Of a DNA stretch of 64,000 bases, positions 4,721 through 52,510 are shown one piece after another (within the stretch, counting starts at the first letter, position 1; each line of letters opens with the position of its first letter). Below the pieces are notes generated by a model. The model worked only from the letters and a program-made list of their open reading frames with translations. It searched no databases and had not been told where the DNA came from. The translations under genes and the position numbers were made by a program. This stretch comes from Actinomycetota bacterium (GTDB taxonomy: Bacteria > Actinomycetota > Aquicultoria > Subteraquimicrobiales > Subteraquimicrobiaceae), in NCBI GenBank assembly GCA_030018275.1, contig JASEGB010000003.1, positions 9,600-73,599 of the forward strand. Reading direction: 5' to 3'.

Positions 4721-4915
4721 CAAAAATATGAGCTTAATCTCGATATAATCACTACGCATGTCATAATTTCAAAATTACTGTTTAATGCTCCCCGACGAGT
4801 CGGGGCGACGCCGTCGCTCACACTCGCTCGTGCGAGGCCATGAGCCAAGTTTATGGTTTTATGACTTAACTTAATTACTGTGAACCGTGAACGGTCAACT
4901 GTGAACGGTGAATTA
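4721..4915. repeat. composite intergenic repeat (modules C + E + A)
   Basis: aaaaatatgagcttaatctcgatataat is shared with 24783-24815. The hairpin ccccgacgagtcgggg plus gcgacgccgtcgctcacactcgct...caagtttatgg is shared with 28310-28435. The gtgaaccgtgaacggt module follows. Confidence 0.6.
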
Positions 4916-24780: not shown

Positions 24781-24958
24781 CCAAAAAATATGAGCTTAAT
24801 CTAGAATATAATTACCGTGAATGGTGAACGGTGAACCAGGTAAGAGTGTAACCAATGTCTGCGATTAATACAGTTGGGAGTTAAGGTATTAGATTTTTCA
24901 CTACCGACTAATCACTACCGACTATCAACTAAGCCGAAGGCTTGAAAGGGGTGGTAAG
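24781..24958. repeat. composite intergenic repeat (modules C + A + B plus a 2x cactaccgacta tandem)
   Basis: aaaaaatatgagcttaatctagaatataat + ccgtgaatggtgaacggtgaacc + gtaaccaatgtctgcgattaataca + cactaccgactaatcactaccgacta. Confidence 0.6.
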
Positions 24959-28448: not shown

Positions 28449-29603
28449 ATGAAAAAGGAATATTTAATGACACCGGGACCCACTCCTGTGCCAACCGATG
28501 TGCTTCTCGCTCAAGCGAGATGCATGATACACCATCGCACGCCTCTTTTTACGGAAACTCTGCTTTCTTTGATAGGGGACCTTAAATATATCTTTCAAAC
28601 GAAAAACGACGTACTCATCTTCGCCTCTTCAGGTACGGGAGCCATGGAATCAGCAGTTGTCAATCTATTTTCTCCGGGCGATAAGGTTATCGCCGCAAGC
28701 AACGGTAAGTTTGGGGATAGATTTATAAAACTTGCCGAGGTCTATGGTCTCAACGTTGCAAAACTCGAGTACGAATGGAACAAGGTGGTAAATCCAGATG
28801 ATATTGCAAACCTGCTTGAAAAGGACAAGAATATAAAAGGTATACTGGTGGTCCAAAGTGAGACCTCCACGGGAATCCTCAATGATATTAAGACTATAGG
28901 AGAGATCGTTGAAGACCATCCGGCCGTTTTGGTGGTGGATTCCATAACTGGAATAGGCGCCGTGGAGTGCAAAACCGATGAGTGGCACCTGGATGTGGTC
29001 ATGACCGGGTCTCAAAAGGGTTTGATGCTCCCACCTGGTTTAGCCTGCGTGAGCGTAAGCGATAAGGCTTGGGAGGCGGTTGAAAGGTCTACTTTGCCGA
29101 AGTTTTATTTTAGTTATAAGAAGTATCGCGATGCATTGGGTAGATCCTCCCCTCAAACTCCCTTTACCCCCCCAATTTCACTGATGATGGCATTGAGGGA
29201 GGCTTTAAGGCTGATCAGGGAAGAAGGGTTGGAAAACGTTATTAGGCGCCACGCCATTTTGGCTGAGGCTGTCCGCCAGGGAGTCCAAGCTTTGGGTTTG
29301 GAGCTTTTTGCTCCCCCTGGAGGGAGAGGAAATGCGGTGACACCCGTTAAGGTCCCCCAGGGGATAGATGGAACGAAAATTGTAAAAATCATGCGTGATA
29401 AATATGGAATTACCATAGCCGGTGGTCAAGAGCACCTGAAGGGAAAGATTTTCAGAATTGGTCATCTGGGCTATTTTGATAGGTTTGACATCATCACCAC
29501 CCTATCGGGTTTGGAGAGCACTCTCTCCGAGTTGGGTTACCCCCTCGAATTTGGAACCGCGATTAAGGCGGCGGAGGAAGTATTCAGGGAAAATCCACTC
29601 TAA
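28449..29603 (+). CDS. class V aminotransferase (phosphoserine / serine-pyruvate aminotransferase type)
   Basis: AGXT-family fold with a PLP-lysine region (TGSQKGLM); located directly upstream of serA. Confidence 0.55.
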   Translation: MKKEYLMTPGPTPVPTDVLLAQARCMIHHRTPLFTETLLSLIGDLKYIFQTKNDVLIFASSGTGAMESAVVNLFSPGDKVIAASNGKFGDRFIKLAEVYGLNVAKLEYEWNKVVNPDDIANLLEKDKNIKGILVVQSETSTGILNDIKTIGEIVEDHPAVLVVDSITGIGAVECKTDEWHLDVVMTGSQKGLMLPPGLACVSVSDKAWEAVERSTLPKFYFSYKKYRDALGRSSPQTPFTPPISLMMALREALRLIREEGLENVIRRHAILAEAVRQGVQALGLELFAPPGGRGNAVTPVKVPQGIDGTKIVKIMRDKYGITIAGGQEHLKGKIFRIGHLGYFDRFDIITTLSGLESTLSELGYPLEFGTAIKAAEEVFRENPL

Positions 29604-29680
29604 TGATAAATGGGTGAATGGGTGAATGGGAAACAATAACCCAATAACCCAGTAACTTAGTAACCCAATAACCGAGGTTG
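29604..29680. repeat. tandem short-repeat array (GGGTGAAT x2 and CCCAATAA-type x4)
   Basis: aaatgggtgaatgggtgaatggg followed by aacccaataacccagtaacttagtaacccaataacc. Confidence 0.6.
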
Positions 29681-34177: not shown

Positions 34178-34678
34178 GTGATTTACCAGGGCAAGGCGCA
34201 TAAATATGGGAGAGATATAAATACGGATGTCATAATCCCGGCCAGATATCTAACGACATTTGATCTTCAGGAGCTGGGCAAGCACTGTATGGAGAATTTG
34301 GATCCGAGTTTTATCTTTAAAATAGAAAAGGGAGATATTCTCGTGGCTGAGGAGAATTTCGGTTGTGGATCCTCAAGGGAACACGCTCCCCTTGCCATCA
34401 AAGCAGCTGGTATTTCCTGTATCATAGCTAAATCCTTTGCCAGGATATTTTTCCGCAACGCGATCAATATTGGGCTCCCCATTTTGGAATGTCCGAAAGC
34501 GGTGGATGGAATAAACACTGGGGACCAGATAAAGGTGGATACTGAGAAGGGGCAGATAATTAATCTATCCACGGGAAAAATTTTTGAAGTCAAACCATTC
34601 CCCGATTTCATCCAAGAGATAATCGAGCGGGGCGGGCTCATAAATTATGTGAAAGAGCGATTGAAGGTTAAAGGTTAA
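34178..34678 (+). CDS. leuD: 3-isopropylmalate dehydratase small subunit
   Basis: Aconitase swivel domain; 166 aa. Confidence 0.8.
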   Translation: MIYQGKAHKYGRDINTDVIIPARYLTTFDLQELGKHCMENLDPSFIFKIEKGDILVAEENFGCGSSREHAPLAIKAAGISCIIAKSFARIFFRNAINIGLPILECPKAVDGINTGDQIKVDTEKGQIINLSTGKIFEVKPFPDFIQEIIERGGLINYVKERLKVKG

Positions 34679-34700
34679 AAGGTTAAAGGTTCTAGGTTGT
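34663..34700. repeat. (GGTTAAA)n tandem array overlapping the leuD stop
   Basis: aaggttaaaggttaaaaggttaaaggttctaggtt. Confidence 0.55.
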
Positions 34701-34979: not shown

Positions 34980-36074
34980 ATGTCTAACGAACAACGAACA
35001 ACGAACAGCGAGCAACGATATAGGATCGGTGTCATTCCCGGCGATGGTACCGGACCGGAGGTTATCCGAGAGGGCTTAAAGGTTTTGAGGTCGGTCAGCG
35101 GAGTTATGAGGTTTCAATGCGAGTTTGTGGAATACGACTTTGGAGGGGAGAGATACTTACGCACCGGGGAAACAATTCCAGACTCCGCAATCGAGGAATT
35201 CAAAAGACTGGACGCCATATATTTGGGGGCAATAGGACATCTCCAGGTGAAGCCCGGTATTCTGGAGCGGGGCATTTTGTTGAAGATAAGATTCGCTCTC
35301 GATCAATACATAAATCTAAGGCCGGTAAAGCTCTACCCGGGAGTGGAGACGCCAATAAAGGGGAAGGGACCCGAGGATATAGATTTCGTGGTGGTCAGAG
35401 AGAACACCGAGGGACTATACGTCGGAGCAGGTGGGTTTCTGAGGAAGGGAACGCCAAATGAAGTGGCCATCCAGGAGAGCATCAACACCCGGAGGGGTGT
35501 GGAAAGATGCATCAGATACGCCTTTGAATTCTGCAGAAAAAGGGATAAAGCCAAGAAGGTTACCCTCTGTGGAAAAACCAATGTTCTAACCTATGCCCAC
35601 GATCTATGGCAGCGAACCTTCGACGAGGTTGGGAGGGAATATCCCGATATAACCAAGGATTATGCCCATGTTGATGCAATCTGCATGTGGATGGTCAAGA
35701 ATCCTGAATGGTTCGATGTCATCGTCACCGATAACATGTTCGGGGATATCATCACCGATTTGGGAGCCATGATTCAAGGGGGAATGGGTATAGCCGCCGG
35801 TGCCAATATTAATCCTGAAGGCACTTCTATGTTTGAGCCCATCGGCGGTTCAGCGCCGAAGTATGCTGGGAAAAATGTGATTAATCCATTGGCGGCAATC
35901 TCAGCTGCACAGCTCATGTTGGATTTTTTGGGGGAGAGTAAGGCTGCAAAACTCGTTGAGAAGGCGATCATCAAGGTGACCAGTGAGAAGATCAAGGGTC
36001 TTGCAGCTGGGCAAATGGGTTACACCACCACCGAGGTCGGGGATATGGTTGCCCAATTCGTAACCGAAGGCTAA
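34980..36074 (+). CDS. leuB: 3-isopropylmalate dehydrogenase
   Basis: [12 protein letters not shown] motif and isocitrate/IPMDH fold. Confidence 0.85.
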
Positions 36075-36140
36075 TGGGTTAAAGGTTAAAGGTTGATGGG
36101 AACCCAATAACCCAATAACCCAAATTATCCCAAATAAGGG
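36075..36140. repeat. paired tandem arrays (GGTTAAA)x2 + (CCCAATAA)x3
   Basis: gggttaaaggttaaaggttgatggg aacccaataacccaataacccaaattatccc. GGGTTA is complementary to TAACCC. Confidence 0.6.
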
Positions 36141-38713: not shown

Positions 38714-39517
38714 ATGAAATTGGTGCGATTTCTGCATGGTCATAGGGTGCGTTTTGGAATTCTTGAGCGTGGTGTGATTCGATCCATCTTTGGTACCGCT
38801 TTTGAAGTTTGCTCGTCAAAGAGTGGCTGTGAACAGGATCCAAAATTTACTGGTGAGGAGTATTCTATTGAGGAAGTTAAAATACTTGCCCCAGTGGAGC
38901 CATCCAAGGTAGTCGCGGTGGGATTAAACTATGTCGACCATGCCAAAGAACTTAATATGCCTTTACCGGACGAACCCATCCTCTTTTTGAAACCCTCGAC
39001 TTCGGTCATCGGTCCCGAGGAGGATATAATTTATCCCCTAATGTCAAAACGCGTGGATTACGAAGCTGAACTGGCTGTGGTTATTGGGGGCAAAGTGAGA
39101 TATCTATCTCCGGAGGAAGCTCCCGAGCATATTCTCGGTTTTTGCTGCTCTAATGATGTTACCGCCCGAGACTTGCAGAGCAAAGATGTACAGTGGACGA
39201 GAGCGAAAAGTTTTGACACTTTTACCCCCATTGGTCCCTGGATTGTTACGGATTTAGATCCGAGTGACCTCCGCATCGAATTACTGCTCAATGGCAAAGT
39301 GAGACAATCTTCCTCCACTTCGAAGATGATTTTCGATGTCAATCATTTGGTCAGTTTTATTTCCCAGATTATGACCCTTCTTCCAGGCGATGTAATCATG
39401 ACCGGTACCCCTCCAGGTGTTGGCTCCATGAAGGTTGGAGATGTCGTCGAAGTCCGCATCGAAGGAATCGGAGTTTTAAGAAATCTCATTGCCACCCAAG
39501 TGTCCGACACTAAATAA
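38714..39517 (+). CDS. fumarylacetoacetate hydrolase (FAH) family protein
   Basis: FAH-fold motifs (DYEAELAVVIG, GTPPGVG). Confidence 0.65.
   Translation: MKLVRFLHGHRVRFGILERGVIRSIFGTAFEVCSSKSGCEQDPKFTGEEYSIEEVKILAPVEPSKVVAVGLNYVDHAKELNMPLPDEPILFLKPSTSVIGPEEDIIYPLMSKRVDYEAELAVVIGGKVRYLSPEEAPEHILGFCCSNDVTARDLQSKDVQWTRAKSFDTFTPIGPWIVTDLDPSDLRIELLLNGKVRQSSSTSKMIFDVNHLVSFISQIMTLLPGDVIMTGTPPGVGSMKVGDVVEVRIEGIGVLRNLIATQVSDTK
39500..39514. repeat. 15-bp palindrome-containing repeat GTGTCCGACACTAAA (left copy, inside the FAH 3' end)
   Basis: An identical sequence, apart from the central base of the 11-nt palindrome, occurs at 39963-39977; the two flank the transposase remnant. Confidence 0.6.
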
Positions 39518-39622
39518 GCCTTTTACCTGGCACAATGAAAAAATAACTGCATATTTGGTTGGCTTTGAAATATTGTTGAAATATAATTCATAAATTAATA
39601 ACTATCTAAGGAAAAGGTTATT

Positions 39623-39929
39623 ATGCCCAGACCTCCACGAGAAATTGTTCCGGGTGGCATCTATCACATAACCACCAGGGGAAATAACCGACAAGATATA
39701 TTTCTCGACAAAGAAGACAGACAAACTTACTTAAGTTTCTAGTTATCTCTCATACATAGATTGCAAATCAGATGAGCTTCTTGACCATAAGGAGATCTTG
39801 AGCCTGTTCGGGAAGAAGGATTCCACTCAGAGGAGAAAATATCGGCAGTTTGTTGAAGATGGAATTGCCCTTTGGAAATTGTATGTACCAAGGAAGTTCA
39901 ACGAAAATCAGTTCAGTAAAATGTGGTGA
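39623..39929 (+). pseudogene. IS200/IS605-family (RAYT-like, COG1943) tyrosine-transposase remnant with an internal deletion
   Basis: N-terminal MPRPPREIVPGGIYHITTRGNNRQDIFLDKEDRQTYLSF* (39623-39742). The family C-terminal tail DELLDHKEILSLFGKKDSTQRRKYRQFVEDGIA... (39771-39929) is in another frame. The catalytic HuH/Tyr core is missing. Confidence 0.55.
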
Positions 39930-39962
39930 GGGCAGCGAAAGTGCTGGTGAAATATTTGCGAG

Positions 39963-39977
39963 GTGTCGGACACTAAA
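39963..39977. repeat. 15-bp repeat GTGTCGGACACTAAA (right copy)
   Basis: Partner of 39500-39514. Confidence 0.6.
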
Positions 39978-39988
39978 AGGGAGCGCTC

Positions 39989-40207
39989 ATGAACACGGCC
40001 AAATTGGAGAGATTTAAACCGTTCTTGTTAATTCTTCTAATTTTACTTTTATTTCCTTCGACGGTCTATGCGGATAAAGGCATGATCCCTCTTTCTGATG
40101 TCTCTCCTTATGAACCCGGTCAAAAAGCGATCCTTGCATGCAATGGTGAGGAAGAAGTGCTCATCCTCTCAACGGATGTTTCCGCCAGCAAACATTCTTT
40201 ATTTTAG
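39989..40207 (+). CDS. small secreted protein (signal peptide); possibly the N-terminal part of a split gene
   Basis: MNTAKLERFKPFLLILLILLLFPSTVYA signal-like N-terminus. Confidence 0.3.
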   Translation: MNTAKLERFKPFLLILLILLLFPSTVYADKGMIPLSDVSPYEPGQKAILACNGEEEVLILSTDVSASKHSLF

Positions 40208-40269
40208 AAGTCTTACTTCTACCTTCAAAACCGGAAATTAAGGAGGGAACCATTAAATCCTTTGAGAGG

Positions 40270-41031
40270 ATGGAGAAATTGATCGGCGAGCGAATGAAAG
40301 ATGTCTATGGACTACGGGGGTTGAAAGAAGGGGCTCCGGGTGTAGAAATAATCTTCCACAAGAGGATAGGAGCCCATGACCTCACCGTGGTCAAGGTGAG
40401 AAGTTATCAAGAATTTTTGAAATGGATTGCTGATTTTCTCAAAGATAAGAAGATCAAACACGAGGTTGATTCACCGAGGTTGCGCGAATTAATCTCAATA
40501 TATTTGGAGCAGGGACTAAATTTCTTTGTCTTTGACCTCATAACGGTTGATCCGGAGCCACGGAGTATAAAGCCCTTAATATACAAATTTAAGAGCGACT
40601 CTCTTTATTATCCATTGGAGATTTCCTCCCTTGCTTCGGGCAATACTAGACTCTCGCTGTTCATCATCACCAAAGATAAATTAGACTCTTCGTCCCTTGA
40701 GAAAGTTCGATTGTATCCCGGTCTAACCCCTCCCTTTCGCGTGGGGGAAGACGAGCTCAGAAAGATCAGTCCAGAGGTCTCCCGGTTGTTTAATGGTTAT
40801 GCTTGGCTTACTCCTGCCCATTACATCGGTCCGATTCAATTTTTGAGCGGAGATTTGCAGATACCCATAAAATCGAGGATTGAAGATAGGGGCATTGAGC
40901 GGTTGATGCCTATAGTCTTGGCGATTTTCGTGGCGATGTTTAGCTGTATTTTAGCTTGCCTTCTTATTTTGCTGAGGTTACAAAGAAGAATTGTTGAACT
41001 GGAGGAAAAGCTTCGGAAAGGAAATCAGTGA
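40270..41031 (+). CDS. hypothetical protein with a C-terminal TM anchor
   Basis: 253 aa with a C-terminal hydrophobic helix (LMPIVLAIFVAMFSCILACLLILL); overlaps the next gene's start. Confidence 0.4.
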   Translation: MEKLIGERMKDVYGLRGLKEGAPGVEIIFHKRIGAHDLTVVKVRSYQEFLKWIADFLKDKKIKHEVDSPRLRELISIYLEQGLNFFVFDLITVDPEPRSIKPLIYKFKSDSLYYPLEISSLASGNTRLSLFIITKDKLDSSSLEKVRLYPGLTPPFRVGEDELRKISPEVSRLFNGYAWLTPAHYIGPIQFLSGDLQIPIKSRIEDRGIERLMPIVLAIFVAMFSCILACLLILLRLQRRIVELEEKLRKGNQ

Positions 41032-41507: not shown

Positions 41508-41728
41508 GCCACCTCCACAATCTTCAGGTGGACATGCTCGTTTTCCATCGATGCATGTTGAGTAATTGATATTTTTATTTCGATGAAGGATCTTTTCCAA
41601 TTTTACTCTATGGTCCCAATTATCGTGTGTAATCGATAAGCAGGGGATAAACAAAATTGTGATTATTAAAATGTTGACAATCATGTACATTTAGGGTGTA
41701 CTTTAAGATGTGACAAAGGAGTGGTCTC

Positions 41729-42025
41729 ATGAGTAAAATTATAGGGGTTACCGAAGCTCGCTCAAAATTAAGGAAGATTCTCGATGAGATTTCGAAAAAA
41801 AGAGAGCCTTACATATTAACGAGGGGAAGCAAACCCGAGGCAGTTATAATTCCATATGAGGAGTATCTGGCAATTGAGGAGCGAACAAAAAAACTCTGGA
41901 ATGAGCGTTTTGAGCTAGCTCTTAGGAAGTCTCGCGCGCTCTTTAACGAGTGGTTGCGCAAGAAGGGTTACGATCCAGAAAAGCTGACAGAGGAAGAGGT
42001 AGAAAGGATAATTCGAAGTGCCTGA
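41729..42025 (+). CDS. type II antitoxin, Phd/YefM family
   Basis: MSKIIGVTEARSKLRKILDEI...PEAVIIPYEEY pattern; 98 aa. Confidence 0.7.
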   Translation: MSKIIGVTEARSKLRKILDEISKKREPYILTRGSKPEAVIIPYEEYLAIEERTKKLWNERFELALRKSRALFNEWLRKKGYDPEKLTEEEVERIIRSA

Positions 42026-42428
42026 GGAGCCGCGGGTTGTCCTCGACACTAACGTTTTTGTCTCCGGCATTCTCTTTGGTGGATTATCGGGTGAGATTAT
42101 TGAATTGTGGCGGGAAGGGGCTTTCAATCTCATCATCTCTCCTGAAACTTTGGCTGAGCTCATTGGAAAGCTAAAGTTTAAATTTGGCCTGCCCAGTGAA
42201 CTTGCCAATGAGTGGCAAGATCTTTTAAGCGAGCGTAGTATCCCCGTTATCCCCGAATACACCACTAAAATCTGTCGCGATCCCGAGGACGATAAGTTCA
42301 TCGACGTGGCTTTGGCAGCTAAGGCTGATTACTTGGTTACAGGAGATAAGGACTTGCTCGTGCTTAAAAACTATCGCGGGGTGAAGATTTTAAAGCCAAA
42401 AGAATTCCTGGCGTTGATGAGAAAATAG
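42018..42428 (+). CDS. PIN-domain toxin (VapC-like)
   Basis: VVLDTNVF N-terminus with acidic PIN residues; 8-nt overlap with the antitoxin. Confidence 0.7.
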   Translation: MPEEPRVVLDTNVFVSGILFGGLSGEIIELWREGAFNLIISPETLAELIGKLKFKFGLPSELANEWQDLLSERSIPVIPEYTTKICRDPEDDKFIDVALAAKADYLVTGDKDLLVLKNYRGVKILKPKEFLALMRK

Positions 42429-42456
42429 ACCATCTGAGCATTTCGTCTTCTTTTTT

Positions 42457-42620
42457 TATGCTGTTAACCATCCACCATCAACAACTACTGTATGTCCCGT
42501 GATGTATTCGCTCTCATCACTTGCTAAAAAGGCGACTGCGTTTGCAATATCATTGGGTTTATATTCACAAAGCCCCCTTTGTCGCACAATAGATATTTTA
42601 CAAGGAGGGCGTTTAATTAT
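42457..42620 (-). pseudogene. short-chain dehydrogenase/reductase (SDR) C-terminal fragment
   Basis: The minus strand encodes ...[34 protein letters not shown], a canonical SDR C-terminus; the upstream part of the gene is absent. Confidence 0.5.
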
Positions 42621-42635
42621 GGCATCATTAGTGAG

Positions 42636-42797
42636 CTAGGAATCATCTGCATGGCTTGGCTTTTTGAAGTTCATATATAAAACATCAGCCTCTTTATCGT
42701 ATGCTGTCCAAATCCTTGAATATGGGACTTTCAATAACTCAGGCACAATCCATATTCTCTCAATTCCTCTTGCAAATATTAAGATTGCTCATAGGCA
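42636..42797 (-). pseudogene. DUF2283-like small protein fragment
   Basis: The minus strand encodes ...IWTAYDKEADVLYMNFKKPSHADDS*, resembling the DUF2283 N-terminal motif, with no ATG start. Confidence 0.3.
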
Positions 42798-42819
42798 TGA
42801 CGCCACGATAGGCAAAATG

Positions 42820-42910
42820 GAGCGCCAGCGAGATTTTGCCTAACGTGTTGAGCGTATCTGAAGTCCAGCCATTAGGCTGGAGTTAGGCGAAGGTGTGAAG
42901 CATCGTAGCC
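42820..42910. repeat. island intergenic repeat R1 (GTTAGGCGA / GGCGAAG motifs)
   Basis: ttgcctaacg, gagttaggcgaagg and ctgttaggcgacgtggcgaa are shared with 47461-47560, 48495-48620 and 51885-51920. Confidence 0.5.
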
Positions 42911-42922
42911 AAATACGCTCTG

Positions 42923-43441
42923 TTAGGCGACGTGGCGAATTATTTCAAGAATATCTTTTACAAGGTTAGGTAATATCATCTTTAGTGTCGAAGATAATTC
43001 CATAGAGGGAAATAGATTCGCCGGTTGAATGGCGAAGATTATGACCGTTTCTGGGCATTCACCTAATTTATTGGAGAGCTCAATCATATTTAATAAATCG
43101 TATTCGTGAGTGGACTGCCCTGAACTTCGTTTGATAGATTTTATATTTTCTGGACTAAAACATCGTTTTTCACCTGGCGAGCCCCCAAAATCTACAGCAT
43201 CAACTATTATTGCAGCATCAAGTTCAGTTAGAGCATGAAGTAAATTCAGACTACTCATTCCTATATCAATAATAAAAACATTTTCAGGCAGGGTTTCATT
43301 CTTCAGTAGTGCCAATACAGCAATACCTACACCATCATCACCCATGAGGCTATTCCCTACTCCAATTATACCTATCCTCTTTGGTTTCTTTGACCTCGAC
43401 CTCGAAAGGGAATCACTGCTGCTACTTACAGCTACTTTCAT
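42923..43441 (-). CDS. hydrogenase maturation endopeptidase (HycI/HyaD family)
   Basis: IGIIGVGNSLMGDDGVGIAV motif; its ATG overlaps the large-subunit stop (ATGA). Confidence 0.65.
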   Translation of the reverse strand: MKVAVSSSSDSLSRSRSKKPKRIGIIGVGNSLMGDDGVGIAVLALLKNETLPENVFIIDIGMSSLNLLHALTELDAAIIVDAVDFGGSPGEKRCFSPENIKSIKRSSGQSTHEYDLLNMIELSNKLGECPETVIIFAIQPANLFPSMELSSTLKMILPNLVKDILEIIRHVA

Positions 43442-44733
43442 ACAAATCGTACCTGTAAATAATGGGTAGAACACGATATGCAAGGATCATATGCCCTAAC
43501 AAGCATCTCCAATTTATGTTCAATTTCATTTCTAGGTTGATCCAGAAGAGTCGGGGCAAAGGCTTCCATATCTTTTTGTATATTTTCGTGATTTTGATTA
43601 GTCGGTATAATATAATTGGCATTGATGCATTTACCATGTTCGTCGAAGGTATAATCGTGAAATAGTATACCACGGGGAGCTTCAACCACACCTATACCGC
43701 GACCAGCCTTTACTACTATTTCCACTTTTTCTTCTTCTAATCCATTATCAAGCAGCCTTTCAATGATGCAAATAGACTCTTCCAAAGAATGGACAACCTC
43801 TACTAATTGTGCGACATTATTCATGAATGGATTAAAACACGGTACCTTCAAACCAAATCTTTCAGCGACTTCTTTTGCTAAAGCCGTCAACCTTGAACTG
43901 CTAAGGTTACATCTTGCTAAAGCACCAACCATATACGAATCTCTATCGTGCTTTGTATGTTTTGCAGTAGAATGCGGCACCACAAATTCGTTTGTGATCG
44001 ATAGGTAATCCACGAGTTCGTGTTTTCCTGTATCTGTAGAGCCTATCATACCATCGTACAAGGCGTACTCCTCGTCTGATATTAAACCAATATACTCGGT
44101 TTCACGGCTGAAGTCGGGTAATTTATCAACATTAGCCGATACAAACCCAGCGACATCCAATGCTGTTTCAATTGCATTCACGAGTCTTGCTTTGAAATCT
44201 ATTAATTCCTTCTCCTCTGGTAGCTTTGTAAAACCGCCGACAATGAAACAGATAGGATGTGTTGTCCTTCCACAAATTAAATCCGATAATTCATTTCCAA
44301 GACGATGAATGTTAATAATTTTGACCACCGCTTCCTTGTGTATCTCAATAAGTGGGAACACACTTCCAACACCAAATAGGTCCGGTGCTACGAGATATCC
44401 AACATGAAGGATATGACTTTGTATATTCTCGGCATGTTTAGTTAATTTTCTGAGAAGCAACGTTTGGTTTGAAATATTAACGCCCATCGCATTTTCTGTA
44501 GCTTTCAGAGACGCCAATGCGTGAGATATTGAACATATTCCGCAGATTCGAGATGCAATGTGAGAAAGCTCACTATAATCCCTCCCAACCATCATTGCTT
44601 CAAAAAAACGAGGGGCTTCTGGGACTTGCCACTGAACAGACAGGAGCTTTCCGTTCTTTGCATCCAGAACAATGTTTCCATGCCCCTCTACCCGCGTGAT
44701 ATGTTCTAATCGAATTTTCAGTTCTTGACTCAT
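43438..44733 (-). CDS. [NiFe] hydrogenase large (alpha) subunit, group 3b sulfhydrogenase type
   Basis: N-terminal RICGICSISH and C-terminal DPCISCSTH Ni-Fe ligand motifs. Confidence 0.8.
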   Translation of the reverse strand: MSQELKIRLEHITRVEGHGNIVLDAKNGKLLSVQWQVPEAPRFFEAMMVGRDYSELSHIASRICGICSISHALASLKATENAMGVNISNQTLLLRKLTKHAENIQSHILHVGYLVAPDLFGVGSVFPLIEIHKEAVVKIINIHRLGNELSDLICGRTTHPICFIVGGFTKLPEEKELIDFKARLVNAIETALDVAGFVSANVDKLPDFSRETEYIGLISDEEYALYDGMIGSTDTGKHELVDYLSITNEFVVPHSTAKHTKHDRDSYMVGALARCNLSSSRLTALAKEVAERFGLKVPCFNPFMNNVAQLVEVVHSLEESICIIERLLDNGLEEEKVEIVVKAGRGIGVVEAPRGILFHDYTFDEHGKCINANYIIPTNQNHENIQKDMEAFAPTLLDQPRNEIEHKLEMLVRAYDPCISCSTHYLQVRFV

Positions 44734-45476
44734 TTGGATATCACCCCCTTATAGCAAAATAGTTCAAACCGATTTAGCGCATCCTCTACCGTGAGACCAT
44801 ATTTTTGCAGGATCTCTAGTTCGGAATCTAAGTTGGGATCTGCCACCAGCCCCCTGCAACCTTTACACTCGTTCCTGTTTGTTGGGCAGATTGCATCGCA
44901 ACCTGCTCGAGTCACAGGTCCAAGACAGAACTTTCCTTCCTCAAATACACAGATATTTTCGCGCTTTTTGCATTCAACACATACAGGATAATTTGGGATT
45001 TCGGGCTTTTTTCCTAGAGCGAGTGAGGTTATAACTTTTGCAAGTTCATCTCTATTTATCGGGCAGCCTGGAACATAATAATCAACTTTAACTACATCAT
45101 CAACTGATTTCGTTGGGAATACATCAAAGTATGGGTTATTCTTTAGATCTGCACCACCATACACCTTCTTCACTTCATTTATTGGAAAACGATTCCTCAA
45201 TGCATTTATGCCACCGATACAGGCACACGCACCCAGCGGTACGAGGATATTTGCACGGCTACGAATTACTTTCAATCGTTCTTCATCTATGGGTCTGGCA
45301 ATAGAGCCTTCGATAAATGCTATATCATAATCATCTGAATGTTCTTTCATAGCTTCTCTAAACGAAACCACATCAACGATGTCGATTAAATCAATTACCG
45401 ATTCTTCAAGATTTATTACCTGAAGTTGACAGCCTTCACAAGATGCGAAATCAAAAAATGCAACCTTCGGTTTCAT
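44730..45476 (-). CDS. [NiFe] hydrogenase small (delta) subunit
   Basis: FASCEGCQLQ proximal-cluster motif. Confidence 0.7.
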   Translation of the reverse strand: MKPKVAFFDFASCEGCQLQVINLEESVIDLIDIVDVVSFREAMKEHSDDYDIAFIEGSIARPIDEERLKVIRSRANILVPLGACACIGGINALRNRFPINEVKKVYGGADLKNNPYFDVFPTKSVDDVVKVDYYVPGCPINRDELAKVITSLALGKKPEIPNYPVCVECKKRENICVFEEGKFCLGPVTRAGCDAICPTNRNECKGCRGLVADPNLDSELEILQKYGLTVEDALNRFELFCYKGVISK

Positions 45477-46306
45477 TATAATGCCTCCTGTAAATCTTTA
45501 ATCTCAGTATAATTGAACACAGGTCCGTCCTGACATACATAAATACCATTAATCTGACAATGCCCACACTTACCAACACCACATTTCATCCTGCGTTCAA
45601 GCGAAAGTATAATATGGTCATCTGGTAAGTCTCTCTCCTTAAGTGATTTTATGACGAATTTGTACATAATTGGTGGACCACAAACTACTGCATAAGTTGT
45701 ATTAATGTCAAAATCAACTTTTGGAATAAGCGTTGTTATAACTCCTACATTGTAATTCCAATGTTCCCCCTCAGGAACTGCATCAACTGTTAAATGGAGT
45801 TCAGTATCTTTTCGTTGGCCCCAGGCTGTAACCTCATTAGTAAAAAGGAGTTCATGGGGTGCCTTACAACCGTATAAGATCGTTACTTTCCTATAATCCG
45901 CTCTATGCTCGAAGACGTAATTAATTAAGGACCGTAAGGGCACAATTCCAAGCCCACCACATATAAACAAAATATCTTTGTCTTTCAAAAACTCTGTATC
46001 AAAACCAATTCCAAACGGCCCTCTAATACCTACTTTGTCGCCTTTTTTCAGTCTATGCATTGCATTAGTAACATTTCCTACCCTACGCACACAAAGTTCG
46101 AATGTTTGGCTTTGGGTAGGTGACGATGAGACAGATATCGGTGCTTCTCCAATACCCATAATAGAGACTTCTACAAATTGACCAGGTTTATGGCCTAGCG
46201 GGTTTCCATCATCAAGCGTGATTTCAAAGAGATTTTCTAACTCCGTAAATCTATTGATATTTTTTATTGTTGCCGCCCTTGGTAGATATATTGAGTCATT
46301 ATTCAT
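45476..46306 (-). CDS. sulfhydrogenase gamma subunit (FAD/NAD(P)-binding, [2Fe-2S])
   Basis: Ferredoxin-NADP-reductase-like fold with CGVGKCGHCQ. Confidence 0.65.
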   Translation of the reverse strand: MNNDSIYLPRAATIKNINRFTELENLFEITLDDGNPLGHKPGQFVEVSIMGIGEAPISVSSSPTQSQTFELCVRRVGNVTNAMHRLKKGDKVGIRGPFGIGFDTEFLKDKDILFICGGLGIVPLRSLINYVFEHRADYRKVTILYGCKAPHELLFTNEVTAWGQRKDTELHLTVDAVPEGEHWNYNVGVITTLIPKVDFDINTTYAVVCGPPIMYKFVIKSLKERDLPDDHIILSLERRMKCGVGKCGHCQINGIYVCQDGPVFNYTEIKDLQEAL

Positions 46307-47394
46307 TCGATCACCTCCTTTAGCGAGTTAAAGACTTTGCATGGGTCTGCAATATCTGGAAGACAACTTGATGCACATCTCCCACACCCAATACACGCAA
46401 TAAATCCAAATTTATCATAAAGGTATTTTCCTTTTCTCATAAACCTATGCCTGTATCTTGCAGCTCTATCCTTTCTGAAGTTTTCTCCGGTGGCAACCTT
46501 TGCAAAATCCTCAAGCAAGCATCCATCCCAAGTTCGAATCCTTTCGCCAGTCTTCAAATTTAGTTCTGTTATATCCTGTACATCGAAGCAGTAACATGTA
46601 GGACACACAAAATTGCAAGACCCACAAGATAGGCACTTTTGTGCATTTTTCTCCCATAGCTCATTATCATAATTTTCTTCTAAAAGTTTAGGCAGTTCTT
46701 CAGATGAAAAATTGAGTTGCTTTTCGAATTTTGATCCTATTTCTGTTTTGATACGTTGAACTTCTCTCGTAGTATCATTATCCGCTTCTGAGACTTTTGC
46801 ATACTTTTCAATAAGATTTTTTCCTTTTATAGAACCGATTTCTATAGCATATTTATCACCGATATTTGTTAACATAAGATCAAAACCACGATCTGTAGTT
46901 GCTGCTCCCATACTGCCTGAAAATGCATATGACGAAACATTTTGTATATTTGTGCCTATAAGGATTGATGCCTCGCGCTTTCTAATGTAATTATAGTCCG
47001 GATTTGAATCTTTAAACACTTTGTCCATCTGTTCAATCGCAATAAGATCATAAGGATGTATGCCGATAATAATTAAAGGCGTGACTTCATTTACCGCTTG
47101 CACCGAAAATTTGCCTGTAAAATCATATCTTAATAATGTTTCAGTTGGCGGCAAAAAATACTTATTAGGCGACAGCATTGTCACATCATACTCAAGTCGA
47201 AGTTCATCAGCTGAATTTAGCGTATCATATATAAATTTATTCCTTTTAGATTTCACTCCTACAACAGTTCTTGAATCATTCTTTATCAGCGTATTAACAA
47301 AGTTTAAGAAATCATCTTTCTTAACGAGTTTCATACCAAATCCTCCCTTATTCTTATCGTGTTTCGCAGCATCCGCATATTTATCTTCTTGCAT
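46303..47394 (-). CDS. sulfhydrogenase beta subunit (Fe-S; AsrA-like)
   Basis: CLSCGSCNFVCPTCYC and CIGCGRC cysteine clusters. Confidence 0.65.
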   Translation of the reverse strand: MQEDKYADAAKHDKNKGGFGMKLVKKDDFLNFVNTLIKNDSRTVVGVKSKRNKFIYDTLNSADELRLEYDVTMLSPNKYFLPPTETLLRYDFTGKFSVQAVNEVTPLIIIGIHPYDLIAIEQMDKVFKDSNPDYNYIRKREASILIGTNIQNVSSYAFSGSMGAATTDRGFDLMLTNIGDKYAIEIGSIKGKNLIEKYAKVSEADNDTTREVQRIKTEIGSKFEKQLNFSSEELPKLLEENYDNELWEKNAQKCLSCGSCNFVCPTCYCFDVQDITELNLKTGERIRTWDGCLLEDFAKVATGENFRKDRAARYRHRFMRKGKYLYDKFGFIACIGCGRCASSCLPDIADPCKVFNSLKEVIE

Positions 47395-47460
47395 TGTTAT
47401 CTACTCCTTTTATTTTAATTTTTTTGAATCCCTACCATATCTCTCTTTAGCCGTCGAATG

Positions 47461-47560
47461 ATTGATAGCGCCATGTCGCCTAACGTTTTGCGGATAAAAG
47501 AAGTTTTTGCGAAGCGAAAATTTGGGTAAAGGCTAAAAGTCTGAACCTTTTATGCTGTGT
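47461..47560. repeat. island intergenic repeat R2
   Basis: gccatgtcgcctaacg...ggataaaagaagtttttgcgaagcg. Confidence 0.5.
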
Positions 47561-47592
47561 TATACGCCGTGCCGTATACCATATCTTCATAA

Positions 47593-48474
47593 CTATTCTT
47601 CCCCCGATATCTTTGAGATTCTATCAAATTCTTCTCTTAGTTTTTTATACGCTTCATCTAATTCTTCTGCTTTACCTTCCAAATTTTTAAAGTGAGTCCT
47701 ATAAAAAACTCGCCATATTTCATCGATCTCGCCAAATCGTTGTGAAAGCCTAACGAGATTTTTCCTCACTTTTTCTGCATCTTCGGAAAGTTTCTTTGCA
47801 TAAGCACCCGCCTTTATAAGTTCGATTTTATGTGAAAGGGTCAGTGGCGATACTACTTGGACTCCATTTTTTGTATAATCTCGTAGCATTTCGAATGCTT
47901 CATTTACTAAGAAATAGTAAACTCCTTCAGAAGGAATATAAGCAAAAGCAAACTCAGCGGATCCCTTTTCTGGACAAACGTAATCATCGGCAATCTTATT
48001 GAGGTGACCTTGGACATCTCTAAGGAATCGTTTTTTGAATTCTTCTCTTTCGTTGGTTTCTTCTATATTTAACATCTTTCCAAAATTATCCAAAGGAAAC
48101 TTAGAGTCTATGCAAATAATCCCCACCGTTGATCTTATGTTCGCATCTGGAGTCTTTCCATCAAGAGTTCTCTCTCTAATACCATACATATCTTTTGGAA
48201 GTTGGTCTGAAAGTATCGTCTCCAGAGAGAGCTCTCCAAAAGATGCCCTTTCTGTTGGTACTCGAAGCATCTGTTCAAAAGATTTGTAACTGTCTCTAAT
48301 ATCCTTAGCATGGCTTTCCACTGCACCTATTTTTTCATCTAATCCCAGCTTTATCCAACTTCTTGATACAGCAGTTTCAATATCCTTCGGCTCAACTCTT
48401 TTACTTCGTAAAATCAAGAATATCAATGCAAACAGAAGCACAACGATAATTATAAGCAAGATTTCCATTATCAT
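47593..48474 (-). CDS. RmuC-domain protein (short form; N-terminal TM, coiled coil, nuclease-like RmuC domain)
   Basis: PDANIRSTVGIICIDSKFPLDNF and FAFAYIPSEGVYY blocks match RmuC conserved regions. Confidence 0.55.
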   Translation of the reverse strand: MIMEILLIIIVVLLFALIFLILRSKRVEPKDIETAVSRSWIKLGLDEKIGAVESHAKDIRDSYKSFEQMLRVPTERASFGELSLETILSDQLPKDMYGIRERTLDGKTPDANIRSTVGIICIDSKFPLDNFGKMLNIEETNEREEFKKRFLRDVQGHLNKIADDYVCPEKGSAEFAFAYIPSEGVYYFLVNEAFEMLRDYTKNGVQVVSPLTLSHKIELIKAGAYAKKLSEDAEKVRKNLVRLSQRFGEIDEIWRVFYRTHFKNLEGKAEELDEAYKKLREEFDRISKISGEE

Positions 48475-48494
48475 ATCACCTACGTTATTATTTT

Positions 48495-48620
48495 AAGCAT
48501 GGCGTATAACCTTTTGGGGATAAAAGAAGTTGCCAAAGGCATTTGGGCGAAGCGTAGCGAAGCCTTTTATCCGCTGTTAGGCGACCCGAAGGGCGAGCCA
48601 CGATAGTGGCGAAGCGTATC
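48495..48620. repeat. island intergenic repeat R3
   Basis: ggataaaagaagtt, three gcgaagcg copies, ctgttaggcgac and gtatcccgcagcc (the reverse complement of ggctgcgggatac at 51888). Confidence 0.5.
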
Positions 48621-48652
48621 CCGCAGCCACCCCTACATCTCTCTCACCATTG

Positions 48653-50077
48653 TTATCCCGCAGCAATTTCTTTTAATCTTCTTTCAAGCATTTTTATTGC
48701 TTTATCTTCAATTTGGTTGGATTTGTCTCTTTTGTCGTATGCTTCAAAAACAAAATTGCCGATTTTATCTCGTATGTCTTTTGGCGGTACTATGATATTT
48801 ATGTCTTCTAAAAGACTTGTATCTCGCTCTCCAATTTCATCTACCACAGCTCCATAGATTTTTCCCTTAATTTGATATTCCCCATAAGGAGAACTTAAGA
48901 AGGCTGCAATATACCCAGAATGTATTTCTGGTTTTATTATAATCCTCAACACATGTTCACTTGCTGCCCAATCTTCCCAACCACTTCTTACAACTCCTAT
49001 TCTTCCAACCGTGCCAGAACGAGTCATTAGAACCCAATCTTTTTTTATCAATATATTTTTGAGATTTCTAGTTCCACTCCAAAGATATTTAACATCCATG
49101 GGTTTTATCTGTGGAATGTGAGAACCTTGTAAGAATGCGACACCTGAACTCGGGTCATCAACATAAGGGCGTTTAAAGCGGGTTGGGATGAATATTTTAT
49201 CTATCACTTCCCTAAATTTCATATCTTCAAATTCTGATTTTGAGAGGTTTTCTTCGATTTGTTGTAAAATCGGTATATGAGACGATGCATCCAACCGCAA
49301 ATTTAAATCACTTGCCTTAAGTTCAAAGCTTTTAACAATTTTCCCCTTATCTCCTTCAAAATACTCAACATTATCTTCATCTATTTTAGGCAAGCCCAAT
49401 TCTGAATATATCATCTCTTCGGCTTTCAAAAGAAGTTCCTGGGCTTCTTCCCTTAATCGGTGGGCTTTTAAAATTTTTTGGTTTATCTCTTCTTCTAATC
49501 CAGGGATGCGAGGGACTGGTATATCGTAAAGATGATGTGGCAAAATGTGGTCAACCGTAATACCAAATTTAGGAGATTTAATAAGTGCTGAGCCAATCCA
49601 AGTTGATAAGAAAGCGTATAGATAACCTCTTATTTTTTCATCAGTGATTACTCTTATCGGATTCGGAGAAATGATAAACTGCTCCAAATATTTTGTTGCT
49701 ATTGTTACTCTTCCAATAGTGCCTGACTGAGAGATGAGCAAATAGCCATTTTTAACCCGCCATTTGTCAGGTTCTGTTAGCTTTCTTATGTCAACTTTTT
49801 TCCTTGCCTTAGGCAAAAAGAATTCTACCTCGGATTGCGTCAAATATGGCTCACCATAATCTGAAAATGGAATGGTTATTTTTAAAGCAGGCATGTAAAT
49901 GTTTTCAACACCAACTAAACCTGAAAGTTTTACAATTTCAGTTTTTTGCGACGCTTTTTCTAAAATTAGTCGTGCAGCAATCACATCTTGAGAGTAAAAG
50001 GAGGCATTTAATCTAAACTCTCCTTCAGCTACCCAGTGGCTTGGCACCTCAACTGTTTGGATTACTGCATCCATCAT
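48653..50077 (-). CDS. hsdS: restriction-modification specificity subunit (HsdS-like, two target-recognition domains)
   Basis: 474 aa with two repeated TRD halves separated by conserved coiled-coil spacers. Confidence 0.7.
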   Translation of the reverse strand: MMDAVIQTVEVPSHWVAEGEFRLNASFYSQDVIAARLILEKASQKTEIVKLSGLVGVENIYMPALKITIPFSDYGEPYLTQSEVEFFLPKARKKVDIRKLTEPDKWRVKNGYLLISQSGTIGRVTIATKYLEQFIISPNPIRVITDEKIRGYLYAFLSTWIGSALIKSPKFGITVDHILPHHLYDIPVPRIPGLEEEINQKILKAHRLREEAQELLLKAEEMIYSELGLPKIDEDNVEYFEGDKGKIVKSFELKASDLNLRLDASSHIPILQQIEENLSKSEFEDMKFREVIDKIFIPTRFKRPYVDDPSSGVAFLQGSHIPQIKPMDVKYLWSGTRNLKNILIKKDWVLMTRSGTVGRIGVVRSGWEDWAASEHVLRIIIKPEIHSGYIAAFLSSPYGEYQIKGKIYGAVVDEIGERDTSLLEDINIIVPPKDIRDKIGNFVFEAYDKRDKSNQIEDKAIKMLERRLKEIAAG

Positions 50078-51873
50078 ACCATTCCCTTCCTTCTAATCCA
50101 TTCTTTAAACATCTCAGCCACCAGGGGAATATGGTCATCAATTGCAGGTTGTCCGTTTGCAGCCAATTCTATTTCTCCTTCTGGCGTGGTCTTGAATACC
50201 GGATTTCCCCTTCGGTCATGTCCCACTTTCTCTGGTATTGCCATGAAAATATCGTAATCCTCTTTTAGTTTTTCTTGTTCTGATGTCTTCTTTTTTAAGA
50301 TGAGAATGCTTGTCTGTGTCCCCGTATGTGGCTCAAAAGTTTCTACTGGCAAATCAACACTTGCTATTATGTAAGTCTTTTTTAGAATCCACTCTCTGAT
50401 CCATATTAATCCAGGATTACTCAAGATGCTGTCAGGAAGAACAATACCCAAAATACCGCCGGGTTTTAGAAAATCTAAACATCGCTCAATAAATAATTGT
50501 TCTGGTGGAAGTGCAGTCCTTGGAGAACCTACCTTGAAAGTGGTTAACTCAAATTGGCTTAATATATCGGGATTGTCTATTACTGCTTTCGTTCCAAACG
50601 GCGGATTGGTTACAACTATATCAAACTCTTCTAAATGCACTTTTCTTTTAGCTTCATCATTCCAATTTGATAATTTTTCAAGAGAGTTAGCATGTACAAT
50701 ATTTGAAGAACCATCACCATGCATAACCATGTTCATTTGAGAGACTTTTACCAAGAACGGGTTAAACTCTATACCATAAAAGTTGGTGTTTACCACATCT
50801 CGAACTAAATCTCTTAATTGGTCGTATCTAAATCCTCGCTTTAAGAACATCTGTTTTATCTTTTGTACGCCTGCTATTAAAAATCCACCTGTCCCAACAG
50901 CTGGATCAAGGATTTTTAACGCTCCTGGACTTGTTAATTTCTCCTCAGGAAATAGTGAAAAGAGCATTTCTATTGCCATACTACAAACATTTCTTGCAGT
51001 GAAAAACTCCCCTCTATCTCCCCTCAAATTAGGACCTACTACTTCCTCGTAAGCTTCACCCTTTACATCTGTCTCAGTATCTACAAAGCTAAATCTCTGT
51101 AACTCTGAAACAATATAACTAAGCACCGAGTCATTTAGTTCAAGTGTCTCGTTCCCTTTAAAAATATATTTGTATCTTTCTTGCACCTTTTGAAAAACCT
51201 TTGTTAATCTATTTCTGACTTTTGAGATGTCTTCACCGGGCAAGATGTAGAATTGTAATGTTGGGTCGTATTGTTCATCATAAACCTTTATAAAAATCAA
51301 TTTTTGGAGTTCTTCAAAAGCCTTATCTTTCTGAAAACCTTGATTAACATATATGTAATTATGAACACGTTTGAACACTTGTTTTAGGTTTACAGCAGGA
51401 ACAAGTCGCCCACTTGTAGGTTTAGGGATAGTAGTTTCTCTTCTTTTAGGTACATCTGGGATCCGAGTTAAAACTCGTTTTCCCCTCTCCTCTACAACCG
51501 TAAACGCTAATCTTTCATTACCTACCCAGAGGGCAAATGCACTATTAGGAGATGCCGCAACATAGCTTCCAAGCTGCCCGACTCCTTCTTTTCTGTCTGA
51601 TGGCTTAACATCTTCGGTTTTTACTTCAGCAATTATGTAGATATTTTCTTGCGTATGTTCTCCATCTTCAGAAAAAATAACAATGTCTGCCCGCTTTTTC
51701 GCCCTTCCCATTTTTATAGGGAACTCAACATCAATATCACTTTTGTTATAGCCATACTCCTCAACAAGACTTCTGACTACATCTTGCCTTATTCTTTCCT
51801 CGGATGTATCTTTTCTTAGTTTCCCAGTAATGAAACACTTTATTTTTCCTGGTGGTATTACTTCTTCAGGCAT
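50074..51873 (-). CDS. N6-adenine DNA methyltransferase (HsdM-like) with N-terminal PD-(D/E)xK nuclease-like (HsdR_N-type) domain
   Basis: VVTNPPFG motif IV and AdoMet motif I (LDPAVGTGGF). The N-terminal 130 aa carry D...EVK (ADIVIFSED...IIAEVK). Overlaps the hsdS start. Confidence 0.7.
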   Translation of the reverse strand: MPEEVIPPGKIKCFITGKLRKDTSEERIRQDVVRSLVEEYGYNKSDIDVEFPIKMGRAKKRADIVIFSEDGEHTQENIYIIAEVKTEDVKPSDRKEGVGQLGSYVAASPNSAFALWVGNERLAFTVVEERGKRVLTRIPDVPKRRETTIPKPTSGRLVPAVNLKQVFKRVHNYIYVNQGFQKDKAFEELQKLIFIKVYDEQYDPTLQFYILPGEDISKVRNRLTKVFQKVQERYKYIFKGNETLELNDSVLSYIVSELQRFSFVDTETDVKGEAYEEVVGPNLRGDRGEFFTARNVCSMAIEMLFSLFPEEKLTSPGALKILDPAVGTGGFLIAGVQKIKQMFLKRGFRYDQLRDLVRDVVNTNFYGIEFNPFLVKVSQMNMVMHGDGSSNIVHANSLEKLSNWNDEAKRKVHLEEFDIVVTNPPFGTKAVIDNPDILSQFELTTFKVGSPRTALPPEQLFIERCLDFLKPGGILGIVLPDSILSNPGLIWIREWILKKTYIIASVDLPVETFEPHTGTQTSILILKKKTSEQEKLKEDYDIFMAIPEKVGHDRRGNPVFKTTPEGEIELAANGQPAIDDHIPLVAEMFKEWIRRKGMV

Positions 51874-51884
51874 ATTCTTACCTC

Positions 51885-51920
51885 CTTTTAAGGCTGCGGG
51901 ATATGTCGCCTAACTTAATA
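51885..51920. repeat. island intergenic repeat R4
   Basis: ggctgcgggatatgtcgcctaac. Confidence 0.5.
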
Positions 51921-52135
51921 TATACGAAATTCGCTTTATGTTCCCAAACTTTAGTATATACGAACTTCGTGTTATTCCCCAATATTGGTTATGCGCTTCA
52001 AATGATAATTCTTGCTATTACCTTCCCCTCAAGATTATATCTAAATGGACTTTTAATCTTTCCTAAATCTAGTAAACCAGTGGTATCAACCGCCATTTCG
52101 TTTTCCTCGTGTAGGTCTGGTATTCCTCGCCAAAC

Positions 52136-52510
52136 TCAGTAACCAGCATTTTTTCTTCGTGTTGAATGCGCCATAGAGAAATGGCACCGGGGAATCGGTC
52201 CGACAAAATGGGCATATTCCCATGGCGGCATAAAGGTAAGGAGGGGCACGGTCACAAGCCCGAAGGCTATAACCATCACGCGTTGACTCCGGTCATAGGC
52301 CGACGGTGTACCGATTTGCCGCCCCAGTGCAGTCACCAGCCACCATACTACCCACAAAACCAGGTAAGCCACTTCCACTGGTCGGTGGAGGAAGGTTATT
52401 CCCCCGCCAGCCACGATAATAATCACACAGGAAGCCGCTATGAAGATAAATCGTCCGATAAGCATCTTGGTCACTTTCAAGCTTCCGACAAATAGGTTAA
52501 TCAAACTCAC
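52136..52510 (-). CDS. hypothetical membrane protein (possibly a C-terminal piece of the adjacent split antiporter)
   Basis: 124 aa, hydrophobic; overlaps the end of the upstream fragment by 14 nt. Confidence 0.25.
   Translation of the reverse strand: MSLINLFVGSLKVTKMLIGRFIFIAASCVIIIVAGGGITFLHRPVEVAYLVLWVVWWLVTALGRQIGTPSAYDRSQRVMVIAFGLVTVPLLTFMPPWEYAHFVGPIPRCHFSMAHSTRRKNAGY

Follow-up and report, generated by a model that had tools for sequence, protein, structure and literature searches.

A probable remnant of a single-copy RAYT group 1/TIRYT transposase unit with inverted palindromic termini in a Candidatus Aquicultoria genome

Introduction

Subclass 2.1 of the TnpA-Y1 transposases (Quentin et al. 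2018, PMC6006769) is the group described as RAYT group 1 by Bertels et al. 2017 (PMC5581495), and the TIRYT/TIRtron family (Di Nocera et al. 2013, PMC3733652) corresponds to it as well. Its signature consists of NHVH (the HuH motif), FQ or W[EQ], Y[IV]HLNP and an SS tail (PMC6006769). Genes of the TIRYT branch are described as flanked by terminal inverted repeats and not by dispersed canonical GTAG REPs (PMC6006769, PMC3733652); the published TIRYT motif is GGGGWSAS, and REP-like sequences were not found beside subclass 2.1 genes by Quentin et al. (PMC6006769).

Here we describe a locus that very probably contains what is left of such a unit. The window, that is the whole stretch of DNA analysed, comprises 64,000 nt from the Actinomycetota bacterium GCA_030018275.1 (contig JASEGB010000003.1, positions 9,600-73,599, forward strand; GTDB lineage Bacteria; Actinomycetota; Aquicultoria; Subteraquimicrobiales; Subteraquimicrobiaceae). 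The host belongs to Ca. Aquicultoria, a candidate class of Actinomycetota represented by MAGs only. The locus was compared with L002/L003 (contigs of GCA_022735775.1 and of a JGI metagenome), with L017 (Candidatus Subteraquimicrobium carltonvillense UBA2594, DDKQ01000042.1; Actinomycetota, class Ca. Aquicultoria) and with a third relative, L005/L006 (GCA_040755895.1), which has a FAH protein of 88% aa identity. The features of the locus in the window are:

38714..39517, + strand: FAH-family hydrolase gene, 267 aa (Pfam FAA_hydrolase, E = 4.3e-72)
39499..39511: left terminal palindrome AGTGTCCGACACT, core GTGTC-C-GACAC at 39500-39510
39559..39587, + strand: promoter-like TTGGCT-17-TATAAT, 5´ of the remnant (consensus match only, 10/12)
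39623..39742, + strand: transposase N-terminal fragment, codons 1-39, followed by a TAG stop created by the frameshift
39737..39740, + strand: deletion junction with TTCT microhomology, 308 bp of the ortholog missing (DNA alignment, blastn break points)
39741..39929, + strand: transposase C-terminal fragment, 62 codons and stop, shifted to +1 with respect to the frame of the N-terminal fragment
39963..39974: right terminal palindrome GTGTCGGACACT, core GTGTC-G-GACAC
39989..41031, + strand: DUF2330 gene, next gene downstream, interrupted by loss of 1 nt near 40200

Results

The transposase fragments and their intact ortholog

The ORF at 39623-39742 encodes MPRPPREIVPGGIYHITTRGNNRQDIFLDKEDRQTYLSF, and the frame opening at 39741 and ending with the stop codon 39927-39929 gives SYLSYIDCKSDELLDHKEILSLFGKKDSTQRRKYRQFVEDGIALWKLYVPRKFNENQFSKMW. 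In Pfam, no relevant match was obtained for the two fragments or for their concatenation; in NCBIfam, the best match of the fragments alone was REP_Tyr_transpos with E = 0.03 for the N-terminal fragment, which is below threshold. Since the window fragments alone do not reach the threshold of any curated family, the family assignment rests on the ortholog. The closest homolog of the FAH protein (93% aa) is encoded on L002/L003, and there a 204-aa Y1_Tnp gene is located between FAH and DUF2330. L017 contains a 100% identical 204-aa gene, again between FAH and DUF2330. The N-terminal 39 aa of the remnant are 100% identical to residues 1-39 of this intact ortholog, here called P0122 (tblastn E = 1.5e-22), and the C-terminal 62 aa are 95% identical to its residues 143-204 (tblastn E = 1.6e-36). 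The original prediction of a RAYT-like (COG1943) Y1 transposase in decay was thus borne out via a syntenic intact ortholog.

With more distant RayT-annotated proteins, the N-terminal fragment shares 55-57% identity (E about 1e-8). With the two fragments joined as query, a word-indexed protein search gave one match, which led to a related, frameshifted copy (L001). A PDB search with the 39-aa fragment pointed to designed 'Pizza' beta-propellers, which we judged spurious, with only summed repeat scores behind the match. The 64 kb window contains no second Y1 gene, so the earlier statement that the only RAYT-like gene here is dead holds within the window; in the species representative one transposase locus was found, at the scope of draft MAGs.

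Family assignment of the intact protein

P0122 matched Pfam PF01797 Y1_Tnp with E = 1.1e-15 (58.2 bits, gathering score 23). It passed the NCBIfam model NF047646 REP_Tyr_transpos (89.2 bits, cut-off 80) and failed the IS200 model NF033573 (20.4 bits, cut-off 55). The sole match in a PDB sequence search was E. coli TnpA-REP (4ER8; E = 9.5e-4, residues 6-144), in an alignment that spans the HUH motif and the YI.INP / Y..NP region. The protein contains the motifs TNHVHLL, NLFQPKYF, RYIHLNP and YPYSSY, and NHVH, FQ, YIHLNP and SS therein agree with the subclass 2.1 signature in Table 1 of PMC6006769. Relatives with 45-50% identity have a Bac_DnaA_C tail, which is typical of subgroup 2.1.2, and carry the JGI name 'REP element-mobilizing transposase RayT'. 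Judged by its motifs and model scores, the intact protein belongs to RAYT group 1/TIRYT/TnpA-Y1 subclass 2.1 and not to IS200. The remnant in the window is an ordinary decayed gene and a member of a previously classified, widespread family.

Comparison with described systems

The locus resembles the TIRYT systems (subclass 2.1, RAYT group 1) in the NHVH, FQ, YIHLNP and SS tail motifs of the intact ortholog, in its low or single copy number with no dispersed GTAG REPs seen, and in being bracketed by inverted termini. The core of these, GGTGTCSG here and GGTGTCAG or GGGGTCAG in relatives, may be a form of the GGGGWSAS motif, which it matches fully or in part. Unlike in TIRYT, the termini are very short here (11-13 nt) and fully self-complementary, and the window copy is a pseudogene without the catalytic core. 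A further difference is the host, which comes from the MAG-only candidate class Ca. Aquicultoria.

With the E. coli TnpA-REP (RayT/YafM) REPtron the locus shares a gene bracketed by inverted palindromes, and P0122 passes the REP_Tyr_transpos model and aligns with 4ER8 through HUH and Y..NP. It differs from this system by the lack of a GTAG foot, of a long bulged stem and of dispersed copies in the 64 kb. In addition, P0122 is of subclass 2.1, whereas TnpA-REP is of subclass 2.2, and the W of the WQ motif, located in the GTAG-recognition region, is replaced by F. Elements of the IS200/IS605 type such as IS608 and ISDra2 also combine an HUH/Y1 catalytic domain with short palindromes close to either end. 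However, P0122 has Y---NP and not Y---Q, the IS200 model failed, tnpB is absent, and the gene is single copy and vertically inherited. Furthermore, the palindromes of IS200/IS605 are both on one strand, whereas the palindromes here are inverted.

Deletion of the catalytic core and decay of the gene

The DNA alignment of the window with L002 contains a clean 308-bp gap with TTCT at both break points (blastn). The missing 308 bp encoded approximately residues 40-142, a stretch that contains both the HUH motif (TNHVHLL) and the tyrosine helix (RYIHLNP). The window copy lacks the HUH motif as well as the catalytic tyrosine and is a pseudogene. As 308 cannot be divided by three, the two remnants do not share a frame; the gap relative to the ortholog agrees with the earlier description of an N-terminal 39-aa piece and a C-terminal tail in different frames with the catalytic core deleted. 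The promoter-like site is identical in sequence in the intact ortholog of L002.

L005 carries a different deletion of 556 bp that extends from the promoter region to codon ~177 (aligned position). Over about 3.2-3.4 kb, nucleotide identity is 95.2% between the window and L002, 91.3% between the window and L005 and 91.4% between L002 and L005. These values place L005 as the outgroup and make the two deletions independent events. The same insertion site in three genomes with 91-95% nucleotide identity argues for vertical inheritance, and the alignments indicate that an intact gene was present at the FAH-DUF2330 site in the common ancestor of the three Ca. Subteraquimicrobium-like genomes. Both palindromes are kept in all three of them (window, L002 and L005). 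It may be that the 308-bp gap or the frameshift in the neighbouring DUF2330 gene is an assembly error.

The segment 39506-39738, comprising the left end, the promoter and the first 39 codons, differs from L017/L002 at 1 of 233 positions, and the flanking genes differ at 4-5%. The low divergence of this segment suggests that the deletion is very recent, that the segment is under local constraint or that recombination occurred here recently.

The terminal palindromes

The 15-mers GTGTCCGACACTAAA at 39500-39514 and GTGTCGGACACTAAA at 39963-39977 are the sole two matches in the window at up to two mismatches; 0.16 matches were expected, and 1 of 100 shuffles reached two. The 11-nt core GTGTCNGACAC occurs exactly twice in the 64 kb, and the core of both termini can be written as GTGTCSGACAC, in a looser form as GGTGTCNG. 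The palindromic 15-mers flank the remnant as originally described and are not ubiquitous within the window.

A palindrome of 11-13 nt necessarily reads as a direct as well as an inverted repeat. In direct orientation the two 15-mers match at all positions but the centre base; outside the 12-13 nt palindrome they have nothing but AAA in common. Palindromy and these three A's thus account for the apparent direct repeat of 15 nt. The left AGTGTCCGACAC and the right GTGTCGGACACT have 12-nt arms that are 100% complementary. Since GTGTCCGACAC is the reverse complement of GTGTCGGACAC, the two ends are mutually inverted. The earlier reading as 15-bp direct repeats is correct in that the match is present, but the sequences behave as inverted termini, with C as centre base upstream and G downstream.

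No additional copies of the palindrome were found in 12.8 kb of the sister genome (Ca. Subteraquimicrobium carltonvillense, about 95% nt identity). With zero additional copies in the 64 kb, the palindromes probably do not form a dense REP family (one per 5-10 kb); a sparse or moderate family may exist across the genome. The canonical REP foot GT[AG]G is absent from the termini. The hairpins predicted for the termini as ssDNA have 4-5 bp and -1.7 to -2.8 kcal/mol, with z-scores of -0.8 to +0.6, and are no better than those of shuffled sequence. The right copy GGTGTCGG and the inverted-repeat consensus GGTGTCSG agree with GGGGWSAS at 6 of 8 positions, the left copy, read as AGTGTCCG, at 5 of 8. 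An Rfam scan of the region gave no family match, and a terminator scan of the region gave no terminator-like site and no T run.

Other repeats and regions of the window

The REP-like modules of the window had been linked to this RAYT. We reject them as REPs of the transposase: they are heptamer arrays of unrelated sequence that do not resemble GTGTCSGACAC, and no further copy of the palindrome is present in the 64 kb. These tandem heptamer/octamer arrays are intergenic, at 1987-2022, 4877-4912, 24814-24835, 29600-29673, 34663-34691 and 36066-36122. Arrays of GTGAACN x4-5 are located at about 1990, 4880 and 24815, arrays of GGTTAAA x4 and of TGGGTGAA / AATAACCC at about 29600, 34665 and 36070; the latter consist of TGGGTGAA x3 followed by AATAACCC x3-5 in an inverted arrangement. 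About 10.6 kb of the window (~41508-52186) are absent from the otherwise syntenic L002. This part encodes a NiFe-hydrogenase cluster (HycI protease, large and small subunits, FAD/NAD and Fe-S subunits) as well as RmuC and a type I/IIG restriction-modification pair.

The neighbouring genes

The last five codons of FAH (VSDTK) and its TAA stop are located within the left terminus, and the codons read inside the left palindrome agree with the prediction that it encodes ...VSDTK*. The FAA_hydrolase match ends at residue 259 of 267. In an alignment with 18 orthologs the conserved FAH domain ends with ...GIGVLRN, and the tail beyond it varies in length and sequence. On visual inspection, the sequence 3´ of the left palindrome looks alignable with the unit's left end in L001 and L013; for blastn it is too short. 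This similarity suggests that the FAH stop codon is probably located in unit-derived DNA. In the window lineage the variable tail continues into the left terminus. A 1-nt difference in L005 puts FAH into another frame, so that its translation continues through the palindrome and terminates 30 nt beyond, which shows that the FAH tail is not constrained.

On the other side, the right palindrome ends 11 nt before the start codon of DUF2330 and abuts the ribosome-binding sequence AAGGGAG. DUF2330 is intact in both relatives (346-347 aa; 347 aa in L002) and is present in the window as two ORFs, 39989-40207 (72 aa) and 40270-41031 (253 aa). The lesion changes TTTAATTTT of L002 to TTTATTTT in the window and is the single gap in a 1772-nt blastn alignment; it could be a real frameshift or a sequencing error.

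Termini and genes in other genomes

Five independent contexts carry the same core: the window lineage, L001, L013, L016 and L099 (genes 66-100% identical). The genes in L001 (itself frameshifted), L013, L016 and L099 are 66-72% identical to P0122 and have unrelated neighbours. The presence of the same core beside related genes at four unrelated loci shows that it travels with the gene and is not a local target; judged by this co-occurrence, the palindromes are part of the gene unit. Upstream, every copy (window lineage, L001, two in L016, L099) has C in the centre, in five of five lineages; downstream, the centre is G in four of four lineages (window lineage, L001, L013, L016), with A in L002.

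In a 60%-identical clade (L007-L015), the sequence upstream of the gene is GGTGTCAGGCACC, and the downstream one, GGTGCCTGACACC, is exactly its reverse complement. Among about 130 loci of greater distance that were scanned, most are bracketed by palindromes or inverted repeats. Flank cores of 33-47% relatives include GGTGTCAGGC, GGGGTCAGGC, GGTGTCAGACACC and GGTCSGACC, which fit or nearly fit GGGGWSAS; among the termini of relatives, GGTGTCAG agrees with this motif at 7 of 8 and GGGGTCAG at 8 of 8 positions. In a Nitrospirota MAG (L018/L019) two 97%-identical copies are homologous almost exactly from terminus to terminus; the homology extends ~7 nt (GAAACAA) beyond the left TIR on its upstream side and one base beyond the right TIR. 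At least there, it was the whole unit, terminus to terminus, that was duplicated. An empty site, that is FAH-DUF2330 carrying one GTGTCSGACACYAAA, was not found; the next FAH relatives have no DUF2330 downstream.

Further observations concern the layout of these loci. In the 60%-identical clade the gene is located within four direct copies of ~60 nt, two on each side (222-345 and 1000-1120 in L010). In the downstream copies only the 13-nt core is flipped to its reverse complement, the 45-nt tail stays direct, and the stop codon of the transposase is located inside the first downstream core. L014 has a CCCCTTA x4 array, similar to the heptamer arrays of the window, directly upstream of the left terminus. 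The L017 assembly contains 340 N (2544-2883) exactly at the centre of the left palindrome, GTGTCC[N340]GACACC, where other assemblies of the same species are continuous, and the metagenome contigs L007, L008 and L013 start at or inside the left palindrome. This suggests that assemblies break at the left palindrome, which may be repeated or may lie where the population varies.

A Y1_Tnp gene downstream of FAH in L098, a relative with 66% aa identity, was considered as a case of deep synteny and rejected as an unrelated classical IS200. It is a 142-aa TnpA (5160-5700; YHIVW...) with hairpins of its own of the CCGCGGACGTAAGTCCG type and chance-level similarity to P0122. The presence of two different Y1 elements beside the same FAH gene is a coincidence.

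Discussion

Taken together, the comparisons make it very probable that 39499-39977 is the dead remnant of a single-copy unit of RAYT group 1/TIRYT/TnpA-Y1 subclass 2.1 with inverted palindromic termini. The unit consists of a gene for an HUH/Y1 ssDNA endonuclease-transposase and two short inverted palindromes, the left one with C and the right one with G in the centre. The comparisons show that it was located between FAH and DUF2330 as early as the common ancestor of the three genomes, and that the sister of the window genome has kept it intact. The lineage of the window lost 308 bp between the TTCT microhomologies, and with them the HUH motif, the catalytic tyrosine and the reading frame, and the lineage of the outgroup L005 suffered the separate 556-bp loss, with the termini persisting in all three genomes. 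By analogy with E. coli TnpA-REP and IS608 TnpA, the intact enzyme may have recognised the termini, probably as strand-specific small hairpins or as a palindromic duplex site, and may have cut and joined single-stranded DNA there. The gene in the window is now unable to encode such an activity.

The locus could instead be the remnant of an autonomous insertion sequence of the IS200/IS605 type that was recently inserted and is being purged. The Y1_Tnp fold of the protein, the terminus-to-terminus duplication in the Nitrospirota MAG and the close relatives in unrelated contexts, by which the unit must have moved at some time, are in line with such an element. We consider it improbable, since P0122 reached 20.4 of the 55 bits of the IS200 model and passed the REP-associated one, and the tyrosine motif is YIHLNP of class 2 and not the Y---Q of IS200. 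Furthermore, there is no tnpB and the neighbours are FAH and DUF2330, the gene is present in one copy per genome at the available resolution, and an insertion site common to three genomes with 91-95% nucleotide identity indicates vertical inheritance.

The two 15-mers might also be direct repeats made by the insertion, either a target-site duplication or att-like sites of a cassette. They do match directly at all positions but the centre, and the left copy overlaps the target gene's end, a common arrangement for att sites. Nevertheless, this origin is very unlikely: related genes at four further loci, unrelated to this one, have the same core on their flanks, the centre base flips consistently from C on the left to G on the right, as expected for inverted termini, and AAA is all that is common beyond the 12-13 nt palindrome. 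In addition, target duplications are not known from HUH/Y1 enzymes of this superfamily (IS200/IS605). Slightly less likely still is that the palindromes are regulatory or terminator elements of a host operon of FAH and DUF2330 and are found beside the transposase by coincidence. Their position exactly at the FAH stop and the DUF2330 ribosome-binding site and their conservation in three genomes while the interior decays would fit a host function. However, no terminator T run and no Rfam match were found in the region, the hairpin energies are no better than those of shuffles, and the palindromes are absent from the rest of the 64 kb and accompany homologous genes beside entirely different neighbours.

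A pseudogene of a known family with an intact counterpart in a sister genome matters little alone. For the decayed subclass 2.1 unit, the same locus is now available in an intact, a 308-bp deleted and a 556-bp deleted state in three related genomes, a natural series of modest value in which a single-copy RAYT-like gene was lost repeatedly and the termini stay embedded in the ends of neighbouring genes. The sequence GTGTC-S-GACAC from the close clade is a clean candidate for the DNA site of subclass 2.1. Possibly, though this is a tentative and rather doubtful extension, short termini, often fully palindromic, with a GTC-N-GAC / GGKGTCWG core on either side of the gene and a flipped centre are the family-wide cognate sites of subclass 2.1, and neighbouring genes come to depend on them. 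If this were true, a large group of domesticated HUH enzymes would gain a defined DNA substrate, and the termini would outlive the gene with neighbours dependent on them, as for the FAH stop on the left and the DUF2330 ribosome-binding site on the right.
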